In this document: piece by piece, positions 15,178 to 39,710 of the stretch
How positions within the stretch are numbered: the stretch's first letter is position 1
Layout: each line of letters begins with the position of its first letter
NCBI GenBank assembly: GCA_963820595.1
Contig: CAWGAO010000007.1
Coordinates: 1 to 47,070 of the forward strand
DNA length: 47,070 bases
Direction: 5' to 3'
Origin: Candidatus Tagabacteria bacterium
GTDB taxonomy: Bacteria > Patescibacteriota > Minisyncoccia > GCA-002779875
Notes under the pieces: generated by a model
The model's database searches: none
Told to the model about the DNA's origin: nothing
Seen by the model: the letters and a program-made list of their open reading frames with translations, nothing else
Position numbers and translations under genes: made by a program

Positions 15178-15368
15178 CTTGCCCCGCACTGAAATTTTGC
15201 TAAACTAAAATCAATTAATTATCACAACCTTGTAATACTATTTAAGTTTGCCGCTATCGTCTAGTTTGGTCTAGGACATCTGGTTCTCATCCAGAAAACA
15301 TCGGTTCAAATCCGATTAGCGGTACATTGAAAAAGAGTAAATATTTTCGCAAAATTTCTAGTGCGGGG
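15178..15368. mobile_element. Inverted-repeat element CCCCGCACTGAAATTTTGC...GCAAAATTTCTAGTGCGGGG carrying a tRNA gene
   Basis: ~19-bp terminal inverted repeat; ends resemble the 26945-27003 element. Confidence 0.75.
15250..15324 (+). tRNA. tRNA-Glu (anticodon CTC), intact, CCA not encoded
   Basis: Acceptor stem GCCGCTA/TAGCGGT; anticodon arm TCTGG-TTCTCAT-CCAGA; T arm ATCGG-TTCAAAT-CCGAT. Confidence 0.92.
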
Positions 15369-25479: not shown

Positions 25480-26851
25480 CTAACGCTCCTTAATTTTCAT
25501 AATTTCTGTTCCTATATTAGTATCTTTAACTATCCAGCCTTTTTTTTCAAGTTCTTCGCGGATGGCGTCGGCTTCTTCCCACTTTTTTTCTTCGCGAAAT
25601 CGTTTCCGTTTCTCGGCTAGAGTCCTTATTTCGGCAGGAATTGAAAAAGATTCGATTTTCCCCAATCCTAAACCCAGAATCCTGTCGAATTTTAAGATAA
25701 GTTTTTGTTTTTCCATTGTATTAATCGCTGAATGTCTGACGGTTTCCCAAATAATTGATAGCGCTTGAGGCATATTTAGGTCGTCATTCGCAGCTTTTAA
25801 AAATTTTCCTTCCAGTTGGCGCGAGAGCAGGGGATTAGGTTTGGTTTTTTTGTTTTCAATTTTAATATTTGGGATGGCTTGTTTCAGATTATTCAGTGCG
25901 TGCTCCGCCGCTTCCAGCGATTTCCAGGTGAAATTCAATTGCGAACGGTAGTGACTTGTGAGAATAAGATAACGGAAGGCGAGGGGATTGAATCCTCGCT
26001 TTTCGATTTCGTTTAAAGTGTAAAAATTTCCGAGCGATTTCGACATCTTTTTGCCGTCAACCAGAAGATGCTCGCCTTCTATCCAAAAGTTTACGAATTT
26101 TTTTCCTGTGGCGGCTTCCGACTGGGCAATTTCATTTTCGTGGTGAGGAAAAATCAAGTCCACCGCGCCCGCGTGAATGTCAAAACTTTTTCCCAAATAC
26201 TTCATGCTTATTGCCGAGCATTCGATGTGCCAGCCCGGCCGGCCAGGCCCGAAAGGGGAGGGCCAAGACGGTTCATTCGGCTTTGTCGATTTCCACAGCG
26301 CGAAATCAGCTGCTTGCCGTTTGCCGTAACTCGTCAGAACTTATGCGCGCTCCGTTTTTAATCTTACGCTGTTCTAATTGCGAAAGTCGGCCATAATTTT
26401 TGAATTTCGAAATATCGAAATAAATTGAGCCGTCATTTCCTTTATAAGCATACCCTTTTTCTAAAAGCACGTTTATTAATCGGATAATTTCTTTAATTGT
26501 TTCTGTCGCTTTTGGATATGCGGTTGCTTTTTCAACGTTGAGATTTTTTAAATCATGAAAGAAAATTTTAATAAGCGGTTCGGTGATTTCTTTAATGGGT
26601 TTATTTTCCCTTTGCATTTTTTTAATGATTTTATCATCGACATCGGTGATGTTCATTATATGTTTTACTTTGTATCCGTTATAAATCAAAACTCGCTTTA
26701 GAATGTCTTCAAAAATATAGGTGCGCAGATTTCCTATGTGAGCTGTGTCGTAAACGGTCGGGCCGCAGGTGTAAATACCCACTTTTTTATCGTGAAGCGG
26801 TTTGAAAATTTCTTTTTTGCGGGTAAGAGTGTTGTAAATTTTTATTTCCAT
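25480..26851 (-). CDS. cysS: Cysteinyl-tRNA synthetase (frameshift near 26310)
   Basis: CGPTVYDTAHIGN, NITDVDDKI, DLIFPHHENE, KMSKSLGN. Confidence 0.94.
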
Positions 26852-31380: not shown

Positions 31381-31611
31381 ATGGTGAATGAAAAAGTACA
31401 ACAGGAGACCAACAGACTGCTTAAAGTAGTAATTGGTCTACTTGTGAGAAATAAGCAAGATAATATTGTTACATTGAGGGATCAGATTAGTGTTCTAAAA
31501 AGTTTAGGGCTAACACCTTCTGATATAGCGGGGATTTTAGGTCGATCGGGTAATTATGTGAATAAAGAATTATCCGAACTTAAGAAAATTAATAAAAACA
31601 AAAAATCGTAA
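31381..31611 (+). CDS. Small HTH protein 1
   Basis: LKSLGLTPSDIAGILGRSGNYVNKELSELK, an HTH pattern. Confidence 0.7.
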   Translation: MVNEKVQQETNRLLKVVIGLLVRNKQDNIVTLRDQISVLKSLGLTPSDIAGILGRSGNYVNKELSELKKINKNKKS

Positions 31612-31615
31612 AATT

Positions 31616-31798
31616 ATGCAAAAAAAATTAAAGCCATCCGATAATTTAGAAGATATTGAAAGAGATAGATTTATTTTAGAACTCGCATTGGCTGGAGTTT
31701 CGCAAGTAAAAATCAGAGAAATAGTAGGCGTGGATATATATCGAGTAAGTCGTATTGTTAAAAACATTAATCCTAATCAACATGGTAAAAATAAGTAA
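31616..31798 (+). CDS. Small HTH protein 2
   Basis: LALAGVSQVKIREIVGVDIYRVSRIVK. Confidence 0.65.
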   Translation: MQKKLKPSDNLEDIERDRFILELALAGVSQVKIREIVGVDIYRVSRIVKNINPNQHGKNK

Positions 31799-31967
31799 TA
31801 AGCATCCTCTTGATAAAAAGTTAGATCGAGCTATTTATTTACTCGAATCTCTTCTTGCCCTAGAATTAAATAAAACTAATCTCGATCGCAATAAGATTCG
31901 CGCACATTTAGGCATTGAAAAGGCCAAAGTTAATAAAATACTCGAAGGTATTAAAAAATCGCATTAA
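31782..31967 (+). CDS. Small HTH protein 3
   Basis: LNKTNLDRNKIRAHLGIEKAKVNKILEGIKK; ATG at 31782. Confidence 0.65.
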   Translation: MVKISNKHPLDKKLDRAIYLLESLLALELNKTNLDRNKIRAHLGIEKAKVNKILEGIKKSH

Positions 31968-31991
31968 AAGTAAAAATAAAAAAATAATTCC

Positions 31992-32225
31992 ATGGCGAAG
32001 AAAAAAGATAATAAACAGTCATCATTAAAAAGAAAAACAAAATTGATTGGCGATGATCGTATTATCGATCTTTTAGAACGTATTGGCGTGTCAAACCTTT
32101 ATTTAAACACCGATCTAGGGCAAAACAGTGTCGCAAAAATACTCGGAATGGATAATAACCGAGCCAATGAAATTTTGAAAGGTATTAAAAAGACGATACA
32201 AAAGAACAACAATGGAAAACGTTGA
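31992..32225 (+). CDS. Small HTH protein 4
   Basis: TDLGQNSVAKILGMDNNRANEILKGIKK. Confidence 0.65.
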   Translation: MAKKKDNKQSSLKRKTKLIGDDRIIDLLERIGVSNLYLNTDLGQNSVAKILGMDNNRANEILKGIKKTIQKNNNGKR

Positions 32226-32994
32226 AATTTTGAAAGAGAATTGCAAAGAGTATGCCAAAACCAAAAAAAGTATTGAGGTATTAAGAAAAGCAAATGGAAA
32301 AAGCCACTATACCGAGATTGCCAAAATAGTAGGGATACACAATACAGCAGTTAGTGGTTTGCTTAAAAAAGCTGAAAAACTGGGATTAGCTAAAAGAGTA
32401 AAGGTCGGAGTCTATAAAAAAATTCCCGGTATTTTAGGCTATATGCCTCCCAAAAGAAAAATCAAAGGTAATTCTTATAAAACTATACAGGATATAATTC
32501 AAAAAATTAGCAAAAACCGTAAAATAAAGAGTAAGCCTCTGCCTTTTTCTGGCCTCGCCATTCCAAACAAAACAGAGGTAAATCTGGGTAAAATGGCGAA
32601 TGCATATCAAGCTTTGTACGCCGTAGAAAATACTTTAAGAGAATTAATTAGGAAAGTGCTAAATCAGAAAGTTGATTGGTGGAAAAATTGTATTCCTAGT
32701 GGCATACAGGTGGAAGTTGAGGATACTATCAAAAAAACCCCCTATCATGCAGTGGAAAGAAATGATGAGCTTGAATACACTCATCTAGGGCAACTTAAAG
32801 AAATCATTATTTATAAGGAAAATTGGAACGATTTTTTGCCATATCTTAATGAGAAGGATAAGAATTCTTTCGCAGCAACGATAAACAAGGCGATTCCATC
32901 TCGCAATGCCATCGGTCATTGTATTCCACTTAAATTAAAAGACTTGAAAGTTGTGGATGTAAGATTTGAGGATATCTTAAGAATGATAAAATAA
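32212..32994 (+). CDS. Winged-HTH fused to a Swt1-like HEPN domain (putative RNase)
   Basis: N-terminal HYTEIAKIVGIHNTAVSGLLKKAEKLGL; C-terminal YAVENTLRELI, DWW, YTHLGQLKEII, NW and RNAIGH (RxxxxH). Confidence 0.75.
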   Translation: MENVEILKENCKEYAKTKKSIEVLRKANGKSHYTEIAKIVGIHNTAVSGLLKKAEKLGLAKRVKVGVYKKIPGILGYMPPKRKIKGNSYKTIQDIIQKISKNRKIKSKPLPFSGLAIPNKTEVNLGKMANAYQALYAVENTLRELIRKVLNQKVDWWKNCIPSGIQVEVEDTIKKTPYHAVERNDELEYTHLGQLKEIIIYKENWNDFLPYLNEKDKNSFAATINKAIPSRNAIGHCIPLKLKDLKVVDVRFEDILRMIK

Positions 32995-33117
32995 GATAAA
33001 AATTCTAATTAAGAAAAATAATAATCACTAATCTAAAATTACTAGTACAAGAGGTGATGTGGCGGAAAGAAAATAATTTATGCCTTGGCCAAACAAAAAA
33101 TTAGGCGCAGTAAATTT

Positions 33118-33521
33118 ATGGATAAAGATTTATTTAAAAAATTGAAAGAATTGAATTTGCCTTGTGGCAAGTATGCGGTTTTTGGGAGCGGGCCGATATG
33201 TGCGAGGGGCTAAGAAAATCCCGGGACTTGGATGTTATTGTTGCAGAAGATGTTTTTGATGATTATAAAGATATGCCCGGGTGGAAGATAAAAGAATTTC
33301 GCGCCGGAGAATTCTATTTAGACAAAAACGATATTGAACTTTGGAAAGATTGGGGTCCGGGCGAATGGGATATCCAAAAATTGATAAATGAAGCCGAAAT
33401 TATTGATGGTTTGCCCTTTGTAAAATTGAAAGAAGTTTTGAAGTGGAAAAAAATGATTGGCAGAGATAAGGACATTAAAGACATTAAAATTATAGAAACC
33501 TATCTAGCCGACAAAAATTAG
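33118..33521 (+). CDS. Small nucleotidyltransferase-fold protein (frameshift in G-run near 33208)
   Basis: YAVFGSGPICARG + LRKSRDLDVIV (GS...DxD motif), GRDKDIKDI. Confidence 0.6.
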
Positions 33522-34360: not shown

Positions 34361-34395
34361 AAAGCCGCTGGGACAACCCAGTGGCTTTCTTTTTG

Positions 34396-34518
34396 TGCAA
34401 AACTAAAGACTTCATTCAATTCTTTTTTGATTGTAACCCAACCTGCCTGCCGGCAGGCAGGTCCAGAGTTCCCTCGGCCGCGGCCTACGGGCAGGTGAAA
34501 ATCGTCCGCTACAGCGAG
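34396..34518. repeat. att-like repeat, copy B (with two hairpin insertions)
   Basis: Aligns with copy C after removing 34442-34461 and 34472-34495. Confidence 0.8.
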
Positions 34519-34519
34519 T

Positions 34520-34548
34520 TTGACAAACAACACGTCTTATGCTATCTT
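34520..34548 (+). promoter_or_regulatory. Promoter of the graspetide cassette
   Basis: TTGACA-17 nt-TATCTT with extended TG. Confidence 0.65.
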
Positions 34549-34597
34549 TGTTTTGGAGTGAAATTTGACAAAAAAGAGAAAAGAAAGGGGGAGAGAA

Positions 34598-34762
34598 ATG
34601 GATAAATGCACAGCGAAAATGCTAGATATAAAAGAAGCATCTAATCAGCAACCTGTTGCTGAATTGCCTTTTATTCTAGGCTTCCTGGAGCATCGTGACG
34701 GCGCCATGGCTGGCACTACCAGCGGCATATGGACCGATATCGATTGCTTCGATTGGACGTAA
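34598..34762 (+). CDS. Graspetide (omega-ester RiPP) precursor peptide, 54 aa
   Basis: Leader motif PFILGFLE resembles microviridin PFFARFL; core TTSGIWTDIDCFDWT; directly upstream of the ATP-grasp ligase. Confidence 0.8.
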   Translation: MDKCTAKMLDIKEASNQQPVAELPFILGFLEHRDGAMAGTTSGIWTDIDCFDWT

Positions 34763-34838
34763 TTGATGACATAGGAAAGATGATATAAATCATCCTTCCT
34801 AATCCTTGCAATTAATAAGAAGAAAGGAGGTGACGCTC

Positions 34839-35801
34839 ATGATATTGGCTATAGGGAATTCTGGTTCTTACGAAGTTTCCGCGTTTAACGTAGTTTTGGC
34901 TGAGTTGAAAAAAGCAGGACAAGATGCCGTTTTATTCAAACAGGATAAATGCCTTGATGGCGAATATCTGGTATTTGAAACAGTTAACGGGGAAATAAAC
35001 TATCGAGTCATCGTCGACGGAATAGATTATGACATTGAAGACTTTTCTGCAATTTGGTATATGAAGCCGCATCTGCCTGTTGAACTGATACAGTTTGAAC
35101 CGGCAGAATATCGGCAATTTATCCAGAGACAATTTGGAGCGATGAGAACGGCTCTATGGTCCGTTTTCCAGCACAAGAAATGGATTGACGATCCTTGGGC
35201 AATTGAGAAGGCGGAGAATAAGATATACCAACTTGCCATGGCTAGAAAAGCGGGTTTGGTATTTCCGGATACGCTGGCAACATCTGATCCCGAGAAAGTT
35301 AAAGCATTTTACAAAAAGCACGGCGGCAATATTATCGTCAAACTGCTCGGCGCCAGTCCTATGATGAATAAAGTCTTATACACAAACATAGTGACCCCTG
35401 AGCATTTGGCAAATATCGACACGGTTAAAATGTCCCCTTCAATATTCCAAGTTCATGTCCCAAAAGCATACGAACTAAGGATCACCATTGTTGGCGAGGA
35501 AATTTTCCCGGCCAGAATCAATTCGCAAGGAGACGAATTAATCAGTTTGGATTGGCGGAGAAAGCCTAAGCTAAATGACTTCGACGTTAAAATGGAGCGG
35601 ACATCCCTTCCTATAAATATTGAGGGAAGCCTGCGACGTTTTATGAAAATGCTTGGCTTGCGCTTCGGATGCATCGACATGATCGTCACCCCTGATGGTG
35701 ATTATGTATTTTTGGAAATTAATCCCAGTGGGCAGTGGTACTTTGTGCAACTTCACACGGAAGCGGAAATTTCCAAAGCTTTGGCTAGACTATTACTCTA
35801 G
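34839..35801 (+). CDS. ATP-grasp peptide maturase (MvdC/MvdD-like)
   Basis: AENKIYQLAMA, FPDTLATSDP, IFQVHVPKAYELRITIVG, DWR, GCIDMIVT, FLEINPSGQW; AAGGAGG SD. Confidence 0.9.
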   Translation: MILAIGNSGSYEVSAFNVVLAELKKAGQDAVLFKQDKCLDGEYLVFETVNGEINYRVIVDGIDYDIEDFSAIWYMKPHLPVELIQFEPAEYRQFIQRQFGAMRTALWSVFQHKKWIDDPWAIEKAENKIYQLAMARKAGLVFPDTLATSDPEKVKAFYKKHGGNIIVKLLGASPMMNKVLYTNIVTPEHLANIDTVKMSPSIFQVHVPKAYELRITIVGEEIFPARINSQGDELISLDWRRKPKLNDFDVKMERTSLPINIEGSLRRFMKMLGLRFGCIDMIVTPDGDYVFLEINPSGQWYFVQLHTEAEISKALARLLL

Positions 35802-35806
35802 CGTCT

Positions 35807-35845
35807 AAAAGAGGGAAAGATCTCAGATCCGTACCTCTTTTTATT
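35807..35845 (+). terminator. Probable intrinsic terminator
   Basis: AAAAGAGG...CCTCTTTT stem followed by a T-run. Confidence 0.55.
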
Positions 35846-35882
35846 TTTATTTTTCTAATTTTTAATGTAATATTATGATTAT

Positions 35883-36455
35883 ATGAAATCGAAATTGAAT
35901 CAAAAATTAATGAAAGAAATCAAGGAAATGTTCGACATCGATCAGGGATTAAGAAATGCATGGGCAAATAAAAAATTAACCGAACCACTTATTAACTGGG
36001 GCGAAGACGGCAAAAAGCGAAAACCCAAGACTAAAATGGAATTAGGACTGATCAATTATTTAGTTTATCTTGTTGACGCCGCGCACAACGCTAGAATTCA
36101 TCGAATTATCAATCAATATGGTTATCCAACCTCAAAACTTATCGGCAAAAAGGGAATTTTTTATTTTTTTCTTTTAGTTCAGCACCAAGATTATGATCTG
36201 GAATTGCAAAAAAATTGTCTCGAACGCTGCGATTTTGCGAAAAAAGAGCAAGCCTATTTGACCGACAGGATTCTTCTTCGCGAAGAGAAGAAGCAACTGT
36301 ACGGCACTCAGTTTCAAAGGGACCTCAAACATAACAGAATTATTTCTCAGCCGATAGAGGATATAAAAAACGTTAATGCGAGGAGAAAAAAAATAGGGCT
36401 TCGGCCGCTTAAAGAAGAGTTAGCGGTGATGAATAAAAAGTTTTACAGCAAATAG
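35883..36455 (+). CDS. DUF6624-like protein
   Basis: DQGLR, YGYP, LLVQH, AYLTDR, QLYGTQF, VNARRKKIGL. Confidence 0.75.
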   Translation: MKSKLNQKLMKEIKEMFDIDQGLRNAWANKKLTEPLINWGEDGKKRKPKTKMELGLINYLVYLVDAAHNARIHRIINQYGYPTSKLIGKKGIFYFFLLVQHQDYDLELQKNCLERCDFAKKEQAYLTDRILLREEKKQLYGTQFQRDLKHNRIISQPIEDIKNVNARRKKIGLRPLKEELAVMNKKFYSK

Positions 36456-36490: not shown

Positions 36491-36532
36491 AAATATAAAA
36501 GGGCGACCAATTTTAGTCGCCCTTTTATATTT
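36491..36532. terminator. Bidirectional-type terminator
   Basis: AAATATAAAAGGGCGAC...GTCGCCCTTTTATATTT. Confidence 0.75.
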
Positions 36533-36612
36533 CATGCAACCGCCGGAATCATTTCTAATTCTTTCTTTATTGTAATCCAATTCAGGGTTCGAAAATCGTC
36601 CGCCCCAGCGAG
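36532..36612 (-). repeat. att-like repeat, copy C (uninterrupted)
   Basis: Minus strand reads LAGADDFRTLNWITIKKELEMIPAVA*. Confidence 0.8.
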
Positions 36613-36613
36613 T

Positions 36614-36642
36614 TTGACAAATTAACCGAGAGATGATATCTT
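36614..36642 (+). promoter_or_regulatory. Cassette promoter
   Basis: TTGACA-17 nt-TATCTT with extended TG, same layout as 34520. Confidence 0.65.
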
Positions 36643-36732: not shown

Positions 36733-37464
36733 ATGAAGAGAATGAAAAAGACAGGAATGTTTTTGGCGGTGGTTGTGGTTTTAATGATGTTGGTCGTTAA
36801 TGTTTTGGCTCAAACGGCGGGCCAGCGTGTGTCCGCGATTGAGCGCGATATTAGCGCATTAGAAACCGAAAAAATAGGGATGAGGTCTGAACAGGTGGCC
36901 CTTAATGCCACGAAACAACGGTTGGATTCTATTATTAAGTTCCACAATGAAAATGTGAGGATATTTGACCAGAATGTCGAGCAACTAGAGGCGGATTTCG
37001 CAACATATAAAAGCGAAAATGATCAATTGAATGCCGAGATAAGGCAACACAATTCATGGAAGCCCAATCCGAGAGATAAAGGTGAAGTTGATTCTTATAA
37101 TGCCGAAGCGAGTCAGCAAAATAGCCGGAGAGCAAATTTTTCCGCAACTTATGCCAAGCTTCAAAGGCGACTTGATGATCAAGAGTTTGTGAATAAAAGT
37201 TTAACTAATAGCGAAAAGAAAATTGATGATATGGAGACGGCTTGGGCGACCAAACAGGAAAATTTAAATAATAGAAAGATCGAGTTCAAAGCAAAGTTAG
37301 CCGCCCTAAAAAGGCAATATGTTGATACCTGTCGGGAACTGTTAGAAAATCCAAAGACAAAAATGGAGGCCTTAAGACTTAAATGTGGAAATGTCCAATT
37401 TGACGGGGCAGACCCTAATCTTCCAACCTTAGAAGACCTGGGAATTCATACGCCTTATGATTAG
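36733..37464 (+). CDS. Secreted coiled-coil hypothetical protein
   Basis: Signal peptide ending VLA|Q, long heptad region, two C-terminal Cys; AAGGAGG SD. Confidence 0.75.
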   Translation: MKRMKKTGMFLAVVVVLMMLVVNVLAQTAGQRVSAIERDISALETEKIGMRSEQVALNATKQRLDSIIKFHNENVRIFDQNVEQLEADFATYKSENDQLNAEIRQHNSWKPNPRDKGEVDSYNAEASQQNSRRANFSATYAKLQRRLDDQEFVNKSLTNSEKKIDDMETAWATKQENLNNRKIEFKAKLAALKRQYVDTCRELLENPKTKMEALRLKCGNVQFDGADPNLPTLEDLGIHTPYD

Positions 37465-37557: not shown

Positions 37558-37642
37558 TACGCAAAACCAAAAATCATTCCCAATCAAGAGTTCCCTCGGC
37601 CGCGGGGCCTACGGGCAGGCGAAAATCGTCCACCAAAGCGAG
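37558..37642. repeat. att-like repeat, copy D (with hairpin insertion)
   Basis: CCAATCAAGAGTTC[insert 37594-37619]CGAAAATCGTCCACCAAAGCGAG. Confidence 0.8.
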
Positions 37643-39042: not shown

Positions 39043-39134
39043 ATATCGAGATTTTAACTTAGAAAAAATTTTTTATCCACAATATTTATTTTGTCGCCTT
39101 GATATTTTGTGCGACATTTGATATTATAAAAAAT

Positions 39135-39710
39135 ATGACAACGAATAAGTTAGACCAAAATTTGCCTTCCGGAGATTATATTACTGGATTTGTGGATGGA
39201 GAAGGTTGTTTTGCTTTAACTTTCAGAAGAGATATAAGACATGAACGAAAAGGAAAGCCTGTTTATTATAGTTGGAAGGTTTTATTTGCTATAGTATTAC
39301 GGAGAGATGATTATGAATTATTAGAAAAGATATCATTAGTTTTAGATTGTGGTGCTATTAGTTTTACTGAACCAAGAGGGAATTTTGATGGGGGAGTCAG
39401 ATATCAAGTATCAAATATAGACGACCTTAAAGAAAAAATTATCCCCTTTTTTTGTAAATATGAATTACATGGCAAGAAAAAATATGATTTCAATTTATGG
39501 GCTAAAGCAGTAGATATTCTTGGAAAATACAAATCAAAAAGAGGAAAAGTGAATATAGTAAAAGGTAAACGAGGGTTTACGAAGGTTGAATGGGAAGAAA
39601 AAGATTTACAAAAACTTTCAGAAATTAAAAATGAAATGTCCGTCTATAAAAGCAAAAAGCCCGTTCCTAAATGGTTTAATGAGTTATCTAAGGTCGGCAG
39701 GGAACTATAA
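39135..39710 (+). CDS. Single-motif LAGLIDADG homing endonuclease family protein
   Basis: YITGFVDGEGCF, IIPFF, LHGKKKYDFNLW. Confidence 0.9.
   Translation: MTTNKLDQNLPSGDYITGFVDGEGCFALTFRRDIRHERKGKPVYYSWKVLFAIVLRRDDYELLEKISLVLDCGAISFTEPRGNFDGGVRYQVSNIDDLKEKIIPFFCKYELHGKKKYDFNLWAKAVDILGKYKSKRGKVNIVKGKRGFTKVEWEEKDLQKLSEIKNEMSVYKSKKPVPKWFNELSKVGREL

Follow-up and report, generated by a model that had tools for sequence, protein, structure and literature searches.

A three-gene graspetide-type cassette with a DUF6624 gene in a small genome of the candidate phyla radiation

Three genes between two terminators

The window analysed here is a stretch of 47,070 nucleotides (nt) from Candidatus Tagabacteria bacterium (assembly GCA_963820595.1, contig CAWGAO010000007.1, hereafter C7, positions 1 to 47,070), a lineage of the candidate phyla radiation (CPR, Patescibacteria) represented by a genome of 570 kilobases (kb) in 10 contigs with an estimated completeness of 56%. 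Surrounded by housekeeping genes (ribosomal proteins, GluRS, MurG and DnaB), and immediately downstream of a stretch of small accessory genes with a low GC content (0.36 at 32-34 kb), two intrinsic terminators enclose ca. 2.1 kb that hold a precursor peptide gene, an ATP-grasp ligase gene and a DUF6624 gene, all three with open frames (Table 1). Both terminators fold far better than expected (left, -21 kcal/mol, z -4.96; right, z -5.25), and in neither case was any of 200 shuffled sequences as good. Judged from its sequence, this locus is a real, intact and self-contained three-gene cassette for a graspetide, i.e., an omega-ester peptide that is made by the ribosome and modified post-translationally (RiPP), in a CPR genome, and it is very probably functional, with the ligase cross-linking its precursor of 54 amino acids (aa). 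An earlier note on this DNA, made from the letters alone, had already described the locus as a CPR cassette of graspetide type, which we uphold, and each of the elements it listed (promoter-like site, precursor, hairpin, ligase and DUF6624 gene) was found where it had been placed. Scanning the window for Rfam families and tRNAs returned a tRNA-Glu at 15250-15325 only and nothing within the cassette, and an S41 peptidase gene lies 7 kb upstream of it. Among the public sequencing runs listed, one DNA run contained 0.11 of the sampled words and none was an RNA run.

A graspetide locus is recognized by a ligase of the MdnB/MdnC/PsnB type, by an adjacent precursor with a leader motif and by conserved donors and acceptors in the precursor core, and all three are present here. 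The ligase, preceded by AGGAGG, matches the RiPP maturase models of NCBIfam (MvdC, 1.4e-64; MvdD, 1.5e-59; SAV_5884-type maturase, 2e-58) with 198-218 bits, as against 43 bits for RimK (4.7e-11). Its six best sequence matches in the PDB are all graspetide macrocyclases, i.e., AMdnB (5e-44), MdnC (1e-42), MdnB, CdnC, 9bou (PruB) and PsnB. An AlphaFold model built from 34 homologues (predicted local distance difference test, pLDDT, 89.7) gave the same picture in Foldseek, where ranks 1-32 are occupied by macrocyclases (AMdnB, MdnC and CdnC at template modelling, TM, scores of 0.79-0.83, with MdnC at 0.83) and RimK/LysX first appears at rank 33 with ca. 15% identity. Residues K168, R214, D280, E293 and N295 are invariant in the 34 ligase sequences, and we take this Lys, Arg and D...E-x-N set to be the ATP- and Mg-binding residues of the ATP-grasp fold. 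The earlier note had allowed that the ligase might cluster with RimK-like enzymes instead; it does not, since maturase models, PDB matches and fold ranks all stand far ahead of RimK. A single graspetide ligase was found in the source genome.

Relatives of the ligase were collected by a scan of one genome per species (best 80 of 572 stretches). In a tree of 92 ligases, for which two short sequences (L031, L056) were dropped and six loci repeating places already included were omitted, the window ligase falls in a clade of 20 (support 100 in the Shimodaira-Hasegawa-like approximate likelihood-ratio test), mostly from CPR genomes together with one metagenome-assembled genome (MAG) of Chitinophagaceae and four MAGs labelled Gammaproteobacteria (labels unchecked). 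Organism names were confined to CPR/Patescibacteria lineages in all 11 named records among 120 listed ligase homologues. A homologous small open reading frame (ORF) precedes the ligase at 18 of the 20 clade loci, one copy (L012) being frameshifted, while the remaining two loci (L019, L020) have no precursor and carry 5'-truncated ligases lacking the first ca. 105 residues. As a separate observation, one locus (L018, 639-1643, minus strand) holds a second, distant ligase of graspetide type ca. 2 kb from the first, which belongs to a different CPR branch of the tree.

When all ORFs of at least 70 aa were compared across the 20 loci, only the ligase (20) and DUF6624 (16) recurred and every other family was confined to three loci or fewer; open-ended frames at L004 and L006 raise the DUF6624 count to 18. 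In 16 of the 20 loci the DUF6624 gene lies directly downstream of the ligase on the same strand, and it also adjoins the ligases of several other CPR branches in the tree. The precursor, ligase and DUF6624 genes are thus kept together in changing neighbourhoods, which fits the word cassette used by the earlier note, as does its remark that the cassette includes no protease or exporter, given that none lies inside it and none recurs across the related loci. A 142-aa ORF that directly follows the ligase at two loci (L002 and L003) matched no Pfam family. Co-occurrence of DUF6624 with ligase homologues, which the earlier note had proposed as a check, was also seen in a phylum sample of 401 genomes (including the source genome; ligase family at E <= 1e-30), where 12 genomes encode the ligase, 19 encode DUF6624 and seven encode both, as against 0.6 expected (12 x 19 / 401), a comparison that is descriptive only because related genomes are not independent. 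In five of these seven genomes the two genes are adjacent.

Table 1. Features of the cassette and its immediate flanks (window coordinates)
Feature	Position	Strand	Basis or detail
Intrinsic terminator of the upstream gene, left cassette boundary	34361..34388	+	12-bp stem with 7 GC pairs, then T-run
GC-rich perfect palindrome, 20-22 nt, dispersed short repeat	34441..34462	.	Copies in own genome
Repeated intergenic block carrying the promoter-like site	34462..34548	+	Families D1, D2, D9; 79-95% identity
Sigma-70-type promoter-like site, TTGACA-17 nt-TATCTT, TG before -10	34520..34548	+	10/12 consensus matches; consensus match alone
Graspetide precursor gene, predicted, 54 aa	34598..34762	+	ORF 34565-34762 read from ATG 34598
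Stem-loop between precursor and ligase, 12-bp, no U-run after it	34772..34801	+	Folding vs shuffles
ATP-grasp graspetide synthetase (macrocyclase), 320 aa	34839..35801	+	NCBIfam, PDB sequence, Foldseek
Weak terminator-like hairpin, then long U/A-rich run, in the ligase-DUF6624 gap	35807..35841	+	Folding
DUF6624 gene, 190 aa, no signal peptide	35883..36455	+	PF20329
Intrinsic terminator, strong, right cassette boundary	36491..36532	+	20-nt arms, 95% complementary
Second promoter-block copy, before gene 36733-37464	36591..36642	+	52 nt, 79% identity to 34497-34548

The precursor family and its predicted rings

The precursor ORF, with a GGGGGAG Shine-Dalgarno sequence upstream of its ATG, ends 77 nt before the ligase, and its start is shared by a 54-aa homologue (P0121, 85% identity) that begins at the same Met. 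It carries the leader motif PFILGFLE (residues 24-31) and a predicted core at approximately residues 38-54, with the C-terminal end TTSGIWTDIDCFDWT. While the precursor itself matched nothing in Pfam or NCBIfam, a large protein database held 17 further called members of its family, the best being of equal length and 85% identical, and gene callers therefore miss such genes as a rule. The core is no lone oddity but belongs to a conserved family with at least 31 distinct precursors, and in this respect the novelty suggested by the earlier note was overstated.

Conservation, counted over 31 distinct sequences, is concentrated in the leader motif and in the core. In the leader (pattern P-[FLI]-[IV]-L), P24 is present in all 31 and L27 in 30. 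In the core, T40 (29/31), Thr or Ser at 41 (31/31), G43 (31/31), Thr at 44 (25/31), an aromatic residue at 45 (29/31), Asp or Glu at 47 (28/31) and D49 (31/31) stand out, and the three precursors with N47 in place of the acid carry D46 instead. A third acid is found as D52 in 20 precursors, and the other 11 have G52 together with Asp at 54. The window precursor, P0121 and P0125 have Ile or Val at position 44, i.e., no Thr or Ser, and exactly these three have T46, a coincidence that suggests a shifted third donor. Two precursor subtypes can be told apart, one with a short linker (subtype A, to which the window belongs) and one with an inserted IVYEGE-like segment; they track the ligase subclades, the latter subtype corresponding to one of these. 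A G-A pair ca. four residues before the core is conserved in the short-linker subtype and could mark the site of leader removal.

From these residues and from the established chemistry of the family, the following course may be proposed. The single MdnC-like ligase would bind the leader motif (P-F/L-I-L, PFILGFLE in the window) and phosphorylate core Asp side chains with ATP, whereupon Thr/Ser hydroxyls would attack to give side-chain lactones. As the earlier note had it, the core offers Thr and Ser as donors and three Asp but lacks Lys, and with one ligase and no Lys only esters, and no lactam, are to be expected. The residues conserved throughout the family point to two shared rings with T40 and T41 as donors and D47 and D49 as acceptors, and we consider it rather likely that these two Thr-to-Asp rings are the ones formed. 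They would be either nested (T41-D47 inside T40-D49) or crossed. A third ring would be optional, joining T46 to D52 in the window and, in most relatives, T44 to D52 or D54; its formation is a tentative prediction, with the odds somewhat against it. The T41 to D47 distance is an i to i+6 spacing, which is also that of the main Thr-Asp lactone of microviridins. A role of the peptide as protease inhibitor may be suggested by analogy only.

DUF6624 and the competing readings

The DUF6624 protein matches PF20329 over residues 64-185 (E 1.4e-17, 64.2 bits vs a cutoff of 27). In an alignment of 19 CPR members, all without a signal peptide, residues Q21, R24, D65, H101, D128, R129, Q138 and G141 are invariant. 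Its structural model (pLDDT 89.4, predicted TM score 0.83) shows a bundle of helices plus a small beta-hairpin, for which Foldseek found nothing in the PDB at E <= 0.001 (best 0.29, a 14-3-3 protein) and VIA-align nothing at Z >= 8 among 48,161 chains (best 7.0, generic helical repeats). The ESM Atlas, with PF20329 clusters excluded, offers a lead to Bacteroidota and 'lipoprotein family' clusters (best score 0.82). It belongs to a large family, with 13,946 cluster representatives at E <= 0.001, or 9,461 at E <= 1e-10, many of them tandem duplicates. Five of 19 longer homologues carry a fused hydrolase-type domain (M19 dipeptidase, S9/alpha-beta hydrolase, PF00756 esterase, Tiki/ChaN and 3-keto-disaccharide hydrolase), and others have TPR, DUF4440, AhpC-like or cytidylyltransferase-like domains, or extra DUF6624 copies alone. 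Inspection by eye of 16 CPR loci with stand-alone DUF6624 genes revealed no recurring partner. At one such locus (L114, 2075-3370, minus strand) the gene lies directly downstream of a 431-aa ORF, the N-terminus of which resembles, by eye, peptide-modifying radical-SAM enzymes. A complex prediction for ligase and precursor with DUF6624 as partner, run without controls, scored 0.00 and has no bearing either way. Since the protein is cytoplasmic and its gene stays with that of the ligase, it most probably works inside the cell on the peptide or together with it, perhaps as a tailoring or processing enzyme or else as a binding partner, and the chances that it takes part in maturation appear to us about evenly balanced.

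Whether the third gene belongs to the system at all is one of the points on which readings differ. The true system could consist of precursor and ligase, with DUF6624 a general-purpose neighbour transcribed separately behind the terminator-like hairpin. We consider this unlikely, even though a ligase is absent within 1.5 kb at 16 of the 21 DUF6624 loci of the phylum sample (where the neighbours vary), the very large family is fused to many unrelated domains, an 82-nt gap with hairpin and U-run separates the gene from the ligase in the window and its ATG is not preceded by a visible Shine-Dalgarno sequence; such a neighbour would hardly be retained at 18 of 20 clade loci while other neighbours change, nor beside the ligases of other CPR branches, and two published surveys (PMC8939145; PMC13097080) also report the association with ligases. 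Closer to the peptide, DUF6624 might be a processing or protection factor, i.e., a leader-removing or ester-handling hydrolase component, or a binder that shields the producer. The invariant polar residues (those listed above except G141) suggest an active or binding site, the hydrolase fusions and the conserved G-A of subtype A would suit such a role, and no other peptidase is conserved in the 20 clade loci. However, no similar solved fold was found, no catalytic class can be assigned, each of the hydrolase fusions is a single cluster, and fusion to a hydrolase argues equally for a non-catalytic module, so that we regard this more specific role as possible but doubtful.

Two further readings question the product rather than the partner. 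A housekeeping enzyme like RimK, LysX or glutathione synthetase, next to a small ORF that is nothing but a chance frame, would be in line with the weak matches of the ligase to RimK and other ATP-grasp families and with the name 'glutathione synthase/RimK-type ligase-like' given by the Joint Genome Institute (JGI) to some homologues; yet the RiPP maturase models score ca. 150 bits above RimK, the first 32 fold ranks are graspetide macrocyclases and the small ORF, with its invariant residues, is kept at 18 of 20 loci, which leaves this reading strongly disfavoured and, in our view, scarcely credible. It is also very unlikely that the cassette is an intact-looking acquisition that is silent or decaying and yields no product in this organism. 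The truncated ligases and the frameshifted precursor in the clade indicate that such cassettes do decay, and this one adjoins the low-GC accessory stretch, but its three frames are open, it retains every invariant residue of the ligase, precursor and DUF6624 families, and a promoter-like site and ribosome-binding sites are present.

The reading that we prefer, of a functional graspetide cassette, has to be set against several observations besides this decay among relatives. The ligase misses the curated NCBIfam cutoffs by far (218 vs 425 bits for MvdC, 202 vs 475 for MvdD and 198 vs 350 for the remaining maturase model) and so does not count as an equivalog of any ligase characterised to date, and the Pfam pre-ATP-grasp domain stays slightly under its cutoff (24.5 vs 27). 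DUF6624 is not specific to graspetides, as it forms a large family that often occurs without a ligase. Whereas the flanking terminators are above chance, the overall promoter scan is not (in the region, 8 sites vs 5.6 +/- 2.4 in shuffles), nor are the two internal hairpins, each taken alone (precursor-ligase gap, -17.4 kcal/mol for an 84-nt stretch, z -1.8, 9/200 shuffles as good; ligase-DUF6624 gap, -14.3 kcal/mol for a 91-nt stretch, z -1.26, 27/200 shuffles as good). Lastly, no leader peptidase or exporter was found at the locus, and a search of the source genome, at its 56% completeness, for a C39 peptidase returned none.

Known graspetides, regulatory signals and neighbouring genes

Cassettes of this type have already been catalogued in silico, and this one is not a new type of system. 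Makarova et al. 2022 describe two CPR branches of graspetide ligases, in which the leaders read Phhx(1,2)h and an uncharacterised accompanying protein, 'cluster 23', shows conserved His and Arg (PMC8939145). The window shares with these branches its CPR host and a leader in which P-F-I-LG-F conforms to Phhx(1,2)h, and since the conserved His and Arg fit the invariant H101 and R129 of DUF6624, we infer that cluster 23 is DUF6624. Many cluster 23 proteins are described there as secreted lipoproteins (PMC8939145), unlike the 19 aligned CPR proteins. The core signature given for Branch 1, TxxxTx(6-10)Dx(1-4)D, is not matched by the window core AGTTSGIWTDIDCFDWT, which has no T-x3-T, but some members of Branch 1 are without the signature and the cassette may still belong there (PMC8939145). 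A second survey, by Carter, Ramesh, Saad, Mubarik and Mitchell 2026, distinguishes 43 graspetide groups, with DUF6624 common in groups 18, 20, 23 and 42 and many candidate-phyla members in groups 27 and 42, and reports, in the portion of the text available, no chemical characterisation for any of groups 18, 20, 23, 27 and 42 (PMC13097080). Its candidate-phyla clusters resemble the window in combining a graspetide synthetase, a precursor and DUF6624, and as group 42 alone is named there for both DUF6624 and candidate phyla, the cassette probably belongs to it, an assignment drawn from the DUF6624 gene and the CPR host rather than from membership in the synthetase similarity network (alignment score 70) that defines the groups (PMC13097080). 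The 'possibly new core class' of the earlier note therefore gives way, given that CPR loci with cluster 23 and DUF6624-associated groups are already in print in silico (PMC8939145, PMC13097080).

Among the systems with known chemistry, that of microviridin (group 1, with MdnA, MdnB and MdnC) has the closest solved enzymes, as MdnC and AMdnB share ca. 30% identity with the window ligase. Likenesses extend to a Pro-led hydrophobic leader motif (PFFARFL vs PFILGFLE), a TT doublet and the Thr-to-Asp spacing of i+6. However, microviridins are made by two ligases, as opposed to one in the window, and use a Lys for their lactam where the window has none, and the cassette includes no TxKYPSD core, GNAT or ABC transporter. 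A core Lys and the pattern TxKxPSDx(E/D)(E/D) are both absent, and the MvdC/MvdD cutoffs are missed by ca. 200-270 bits. Plesiocin (group 2, PsnA/PsnB), the core motif of which is a repeated TTxxxxEE, is alike in its adjacent Thr donors and two nearby acids, an arrangement in which two lactones could nest in hairpin fashion. It differs in its EE acceptors, four-residue spacer and repeats, whereas the window has D-x-D acceptors, a five-residue spacer and a single TT-x5-D-x-D core, and PsnB is distant from the window ligase (sequence match at E 8e-8, fold match at 20% identity), so that the locus cannot be counted as a plesiocin system. The statement of the earlier note that the core lies outside the microviridin, plesiocin and thuringinin motifs it quoted is thus borne out.

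Less apt was its description of the organism as one with little secondary metabolism, which fits the genome poorly, as two ORFs of ca. 380 aa with SPASM domains lie on the same contig (58950-59123 and 92662-92832 of C7, 12 and 46 kb past the end of the window). Given that CPR/Patescibacteria have tiny genomes and depend on hosts, a retained peptide-making cassette likely matters for their lifestyle. A full-text literature search found no experimental characterisation of a CPR graspetide or of a DUF6624 protein, and the value of the locus lies in its being a compact, intact experimental target, in which the precursor family is well delimited, particular residues can be named for mutation and a partner protein is still to be explained.

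The promoter-like site in front of the precursor would drive its transcription. The 30-nt block that holds the -35 element recurs at 36592-36621, and two such matches were seen in 0 of 100 shuffles. A longer block of ca. 85 nt occurs at three places, all within 3.2 kb, and is absent from the rest of the source genome, the partial copies being at 36591-36642 and 37584-37642, and the first of these contains TTGACA-17-TATCTT with TG at 36614-36642. Such repetition points to regulation in common or to a promoter module that was duplicated locally. The gene that follows the second copy and the cassette (36733-37464) encodes 243 aa with an N-terminal segment like a signal peptide and a long coiled-coil, with weak matches to coiled-coil Pfam families only. 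The palindrome immediately 5' of the promoter block is present in eight or more further perfect copies on contigs C5, C6, C7 and C8.

Stem-loops at the same position between precursor and ligase are found in the relatives, where 14 of 16 intergenic regions reach z <= -2.5 (mononucleotide shuffles), with differing sequence and in many cases a U-run thereafter. Such a stem-loop, 3' of the precursor gene, may cause partial termination and thereby probably lets precursor mRNA outnumber ligase mRNA, as judged by analogy with other RiPP operons, in which partial termination in favour of the precursor mRNA occurs. The terminator that the earlier note had placed after the ligase stands in part, i.e., a hairpin and a U-run are there, but the structure is weak by folding and is not among the calls of a consensus scan. 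Going further, we may speculate that DUF6624 is a new class of graspetide maturation factor with an unassigned fold, acting either as an obligatory partner or in tailoring or processing, that TT-x-G-x-Ar-x-D-x-D precursors (Ar, aromatic) lead to bi- or tricyclic products closed by esters alone, a topology without precedent so far among characterised graspetides, that the product is made by ultra-small episymbionts, possibly for dealing with their hosts, and that the promoter block couples it to the secreted coiled-coil neighbour, a combination that we think improbable as it stands.

Some neighbouring genes deserve a brief mention. Upstream of the cassette, the stretch 31381-32994 (GC content 0.36) holds a tandem array of four small paralogous ORFs (60-77 aa), the C-terminal halves of which resemble a helix-turn-helix, and after them the gene of a 260-aa protein that weakly matches helix-turn-helix and Swt1-like HEPN domains. 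Next to these, two overlapping frames of 42 and 119 aa (33085-33521) that match nothing in Pfam resemble, by eye, a small nucleotidyltransferase, with a GSG motif in one and an LDV-type acidic motif in the other, and possibly represent a frameshifted gene beside the HEPN protein, i.e., a HEPN/MNT pair. Farther away, a 241-aa ORF (25480-26205) corresponds only to the C-terminal part of cysteinyl-tRNA synthetase, and a free-standing LAGLIDADG endonuclease ORF is present at 39099-39710.

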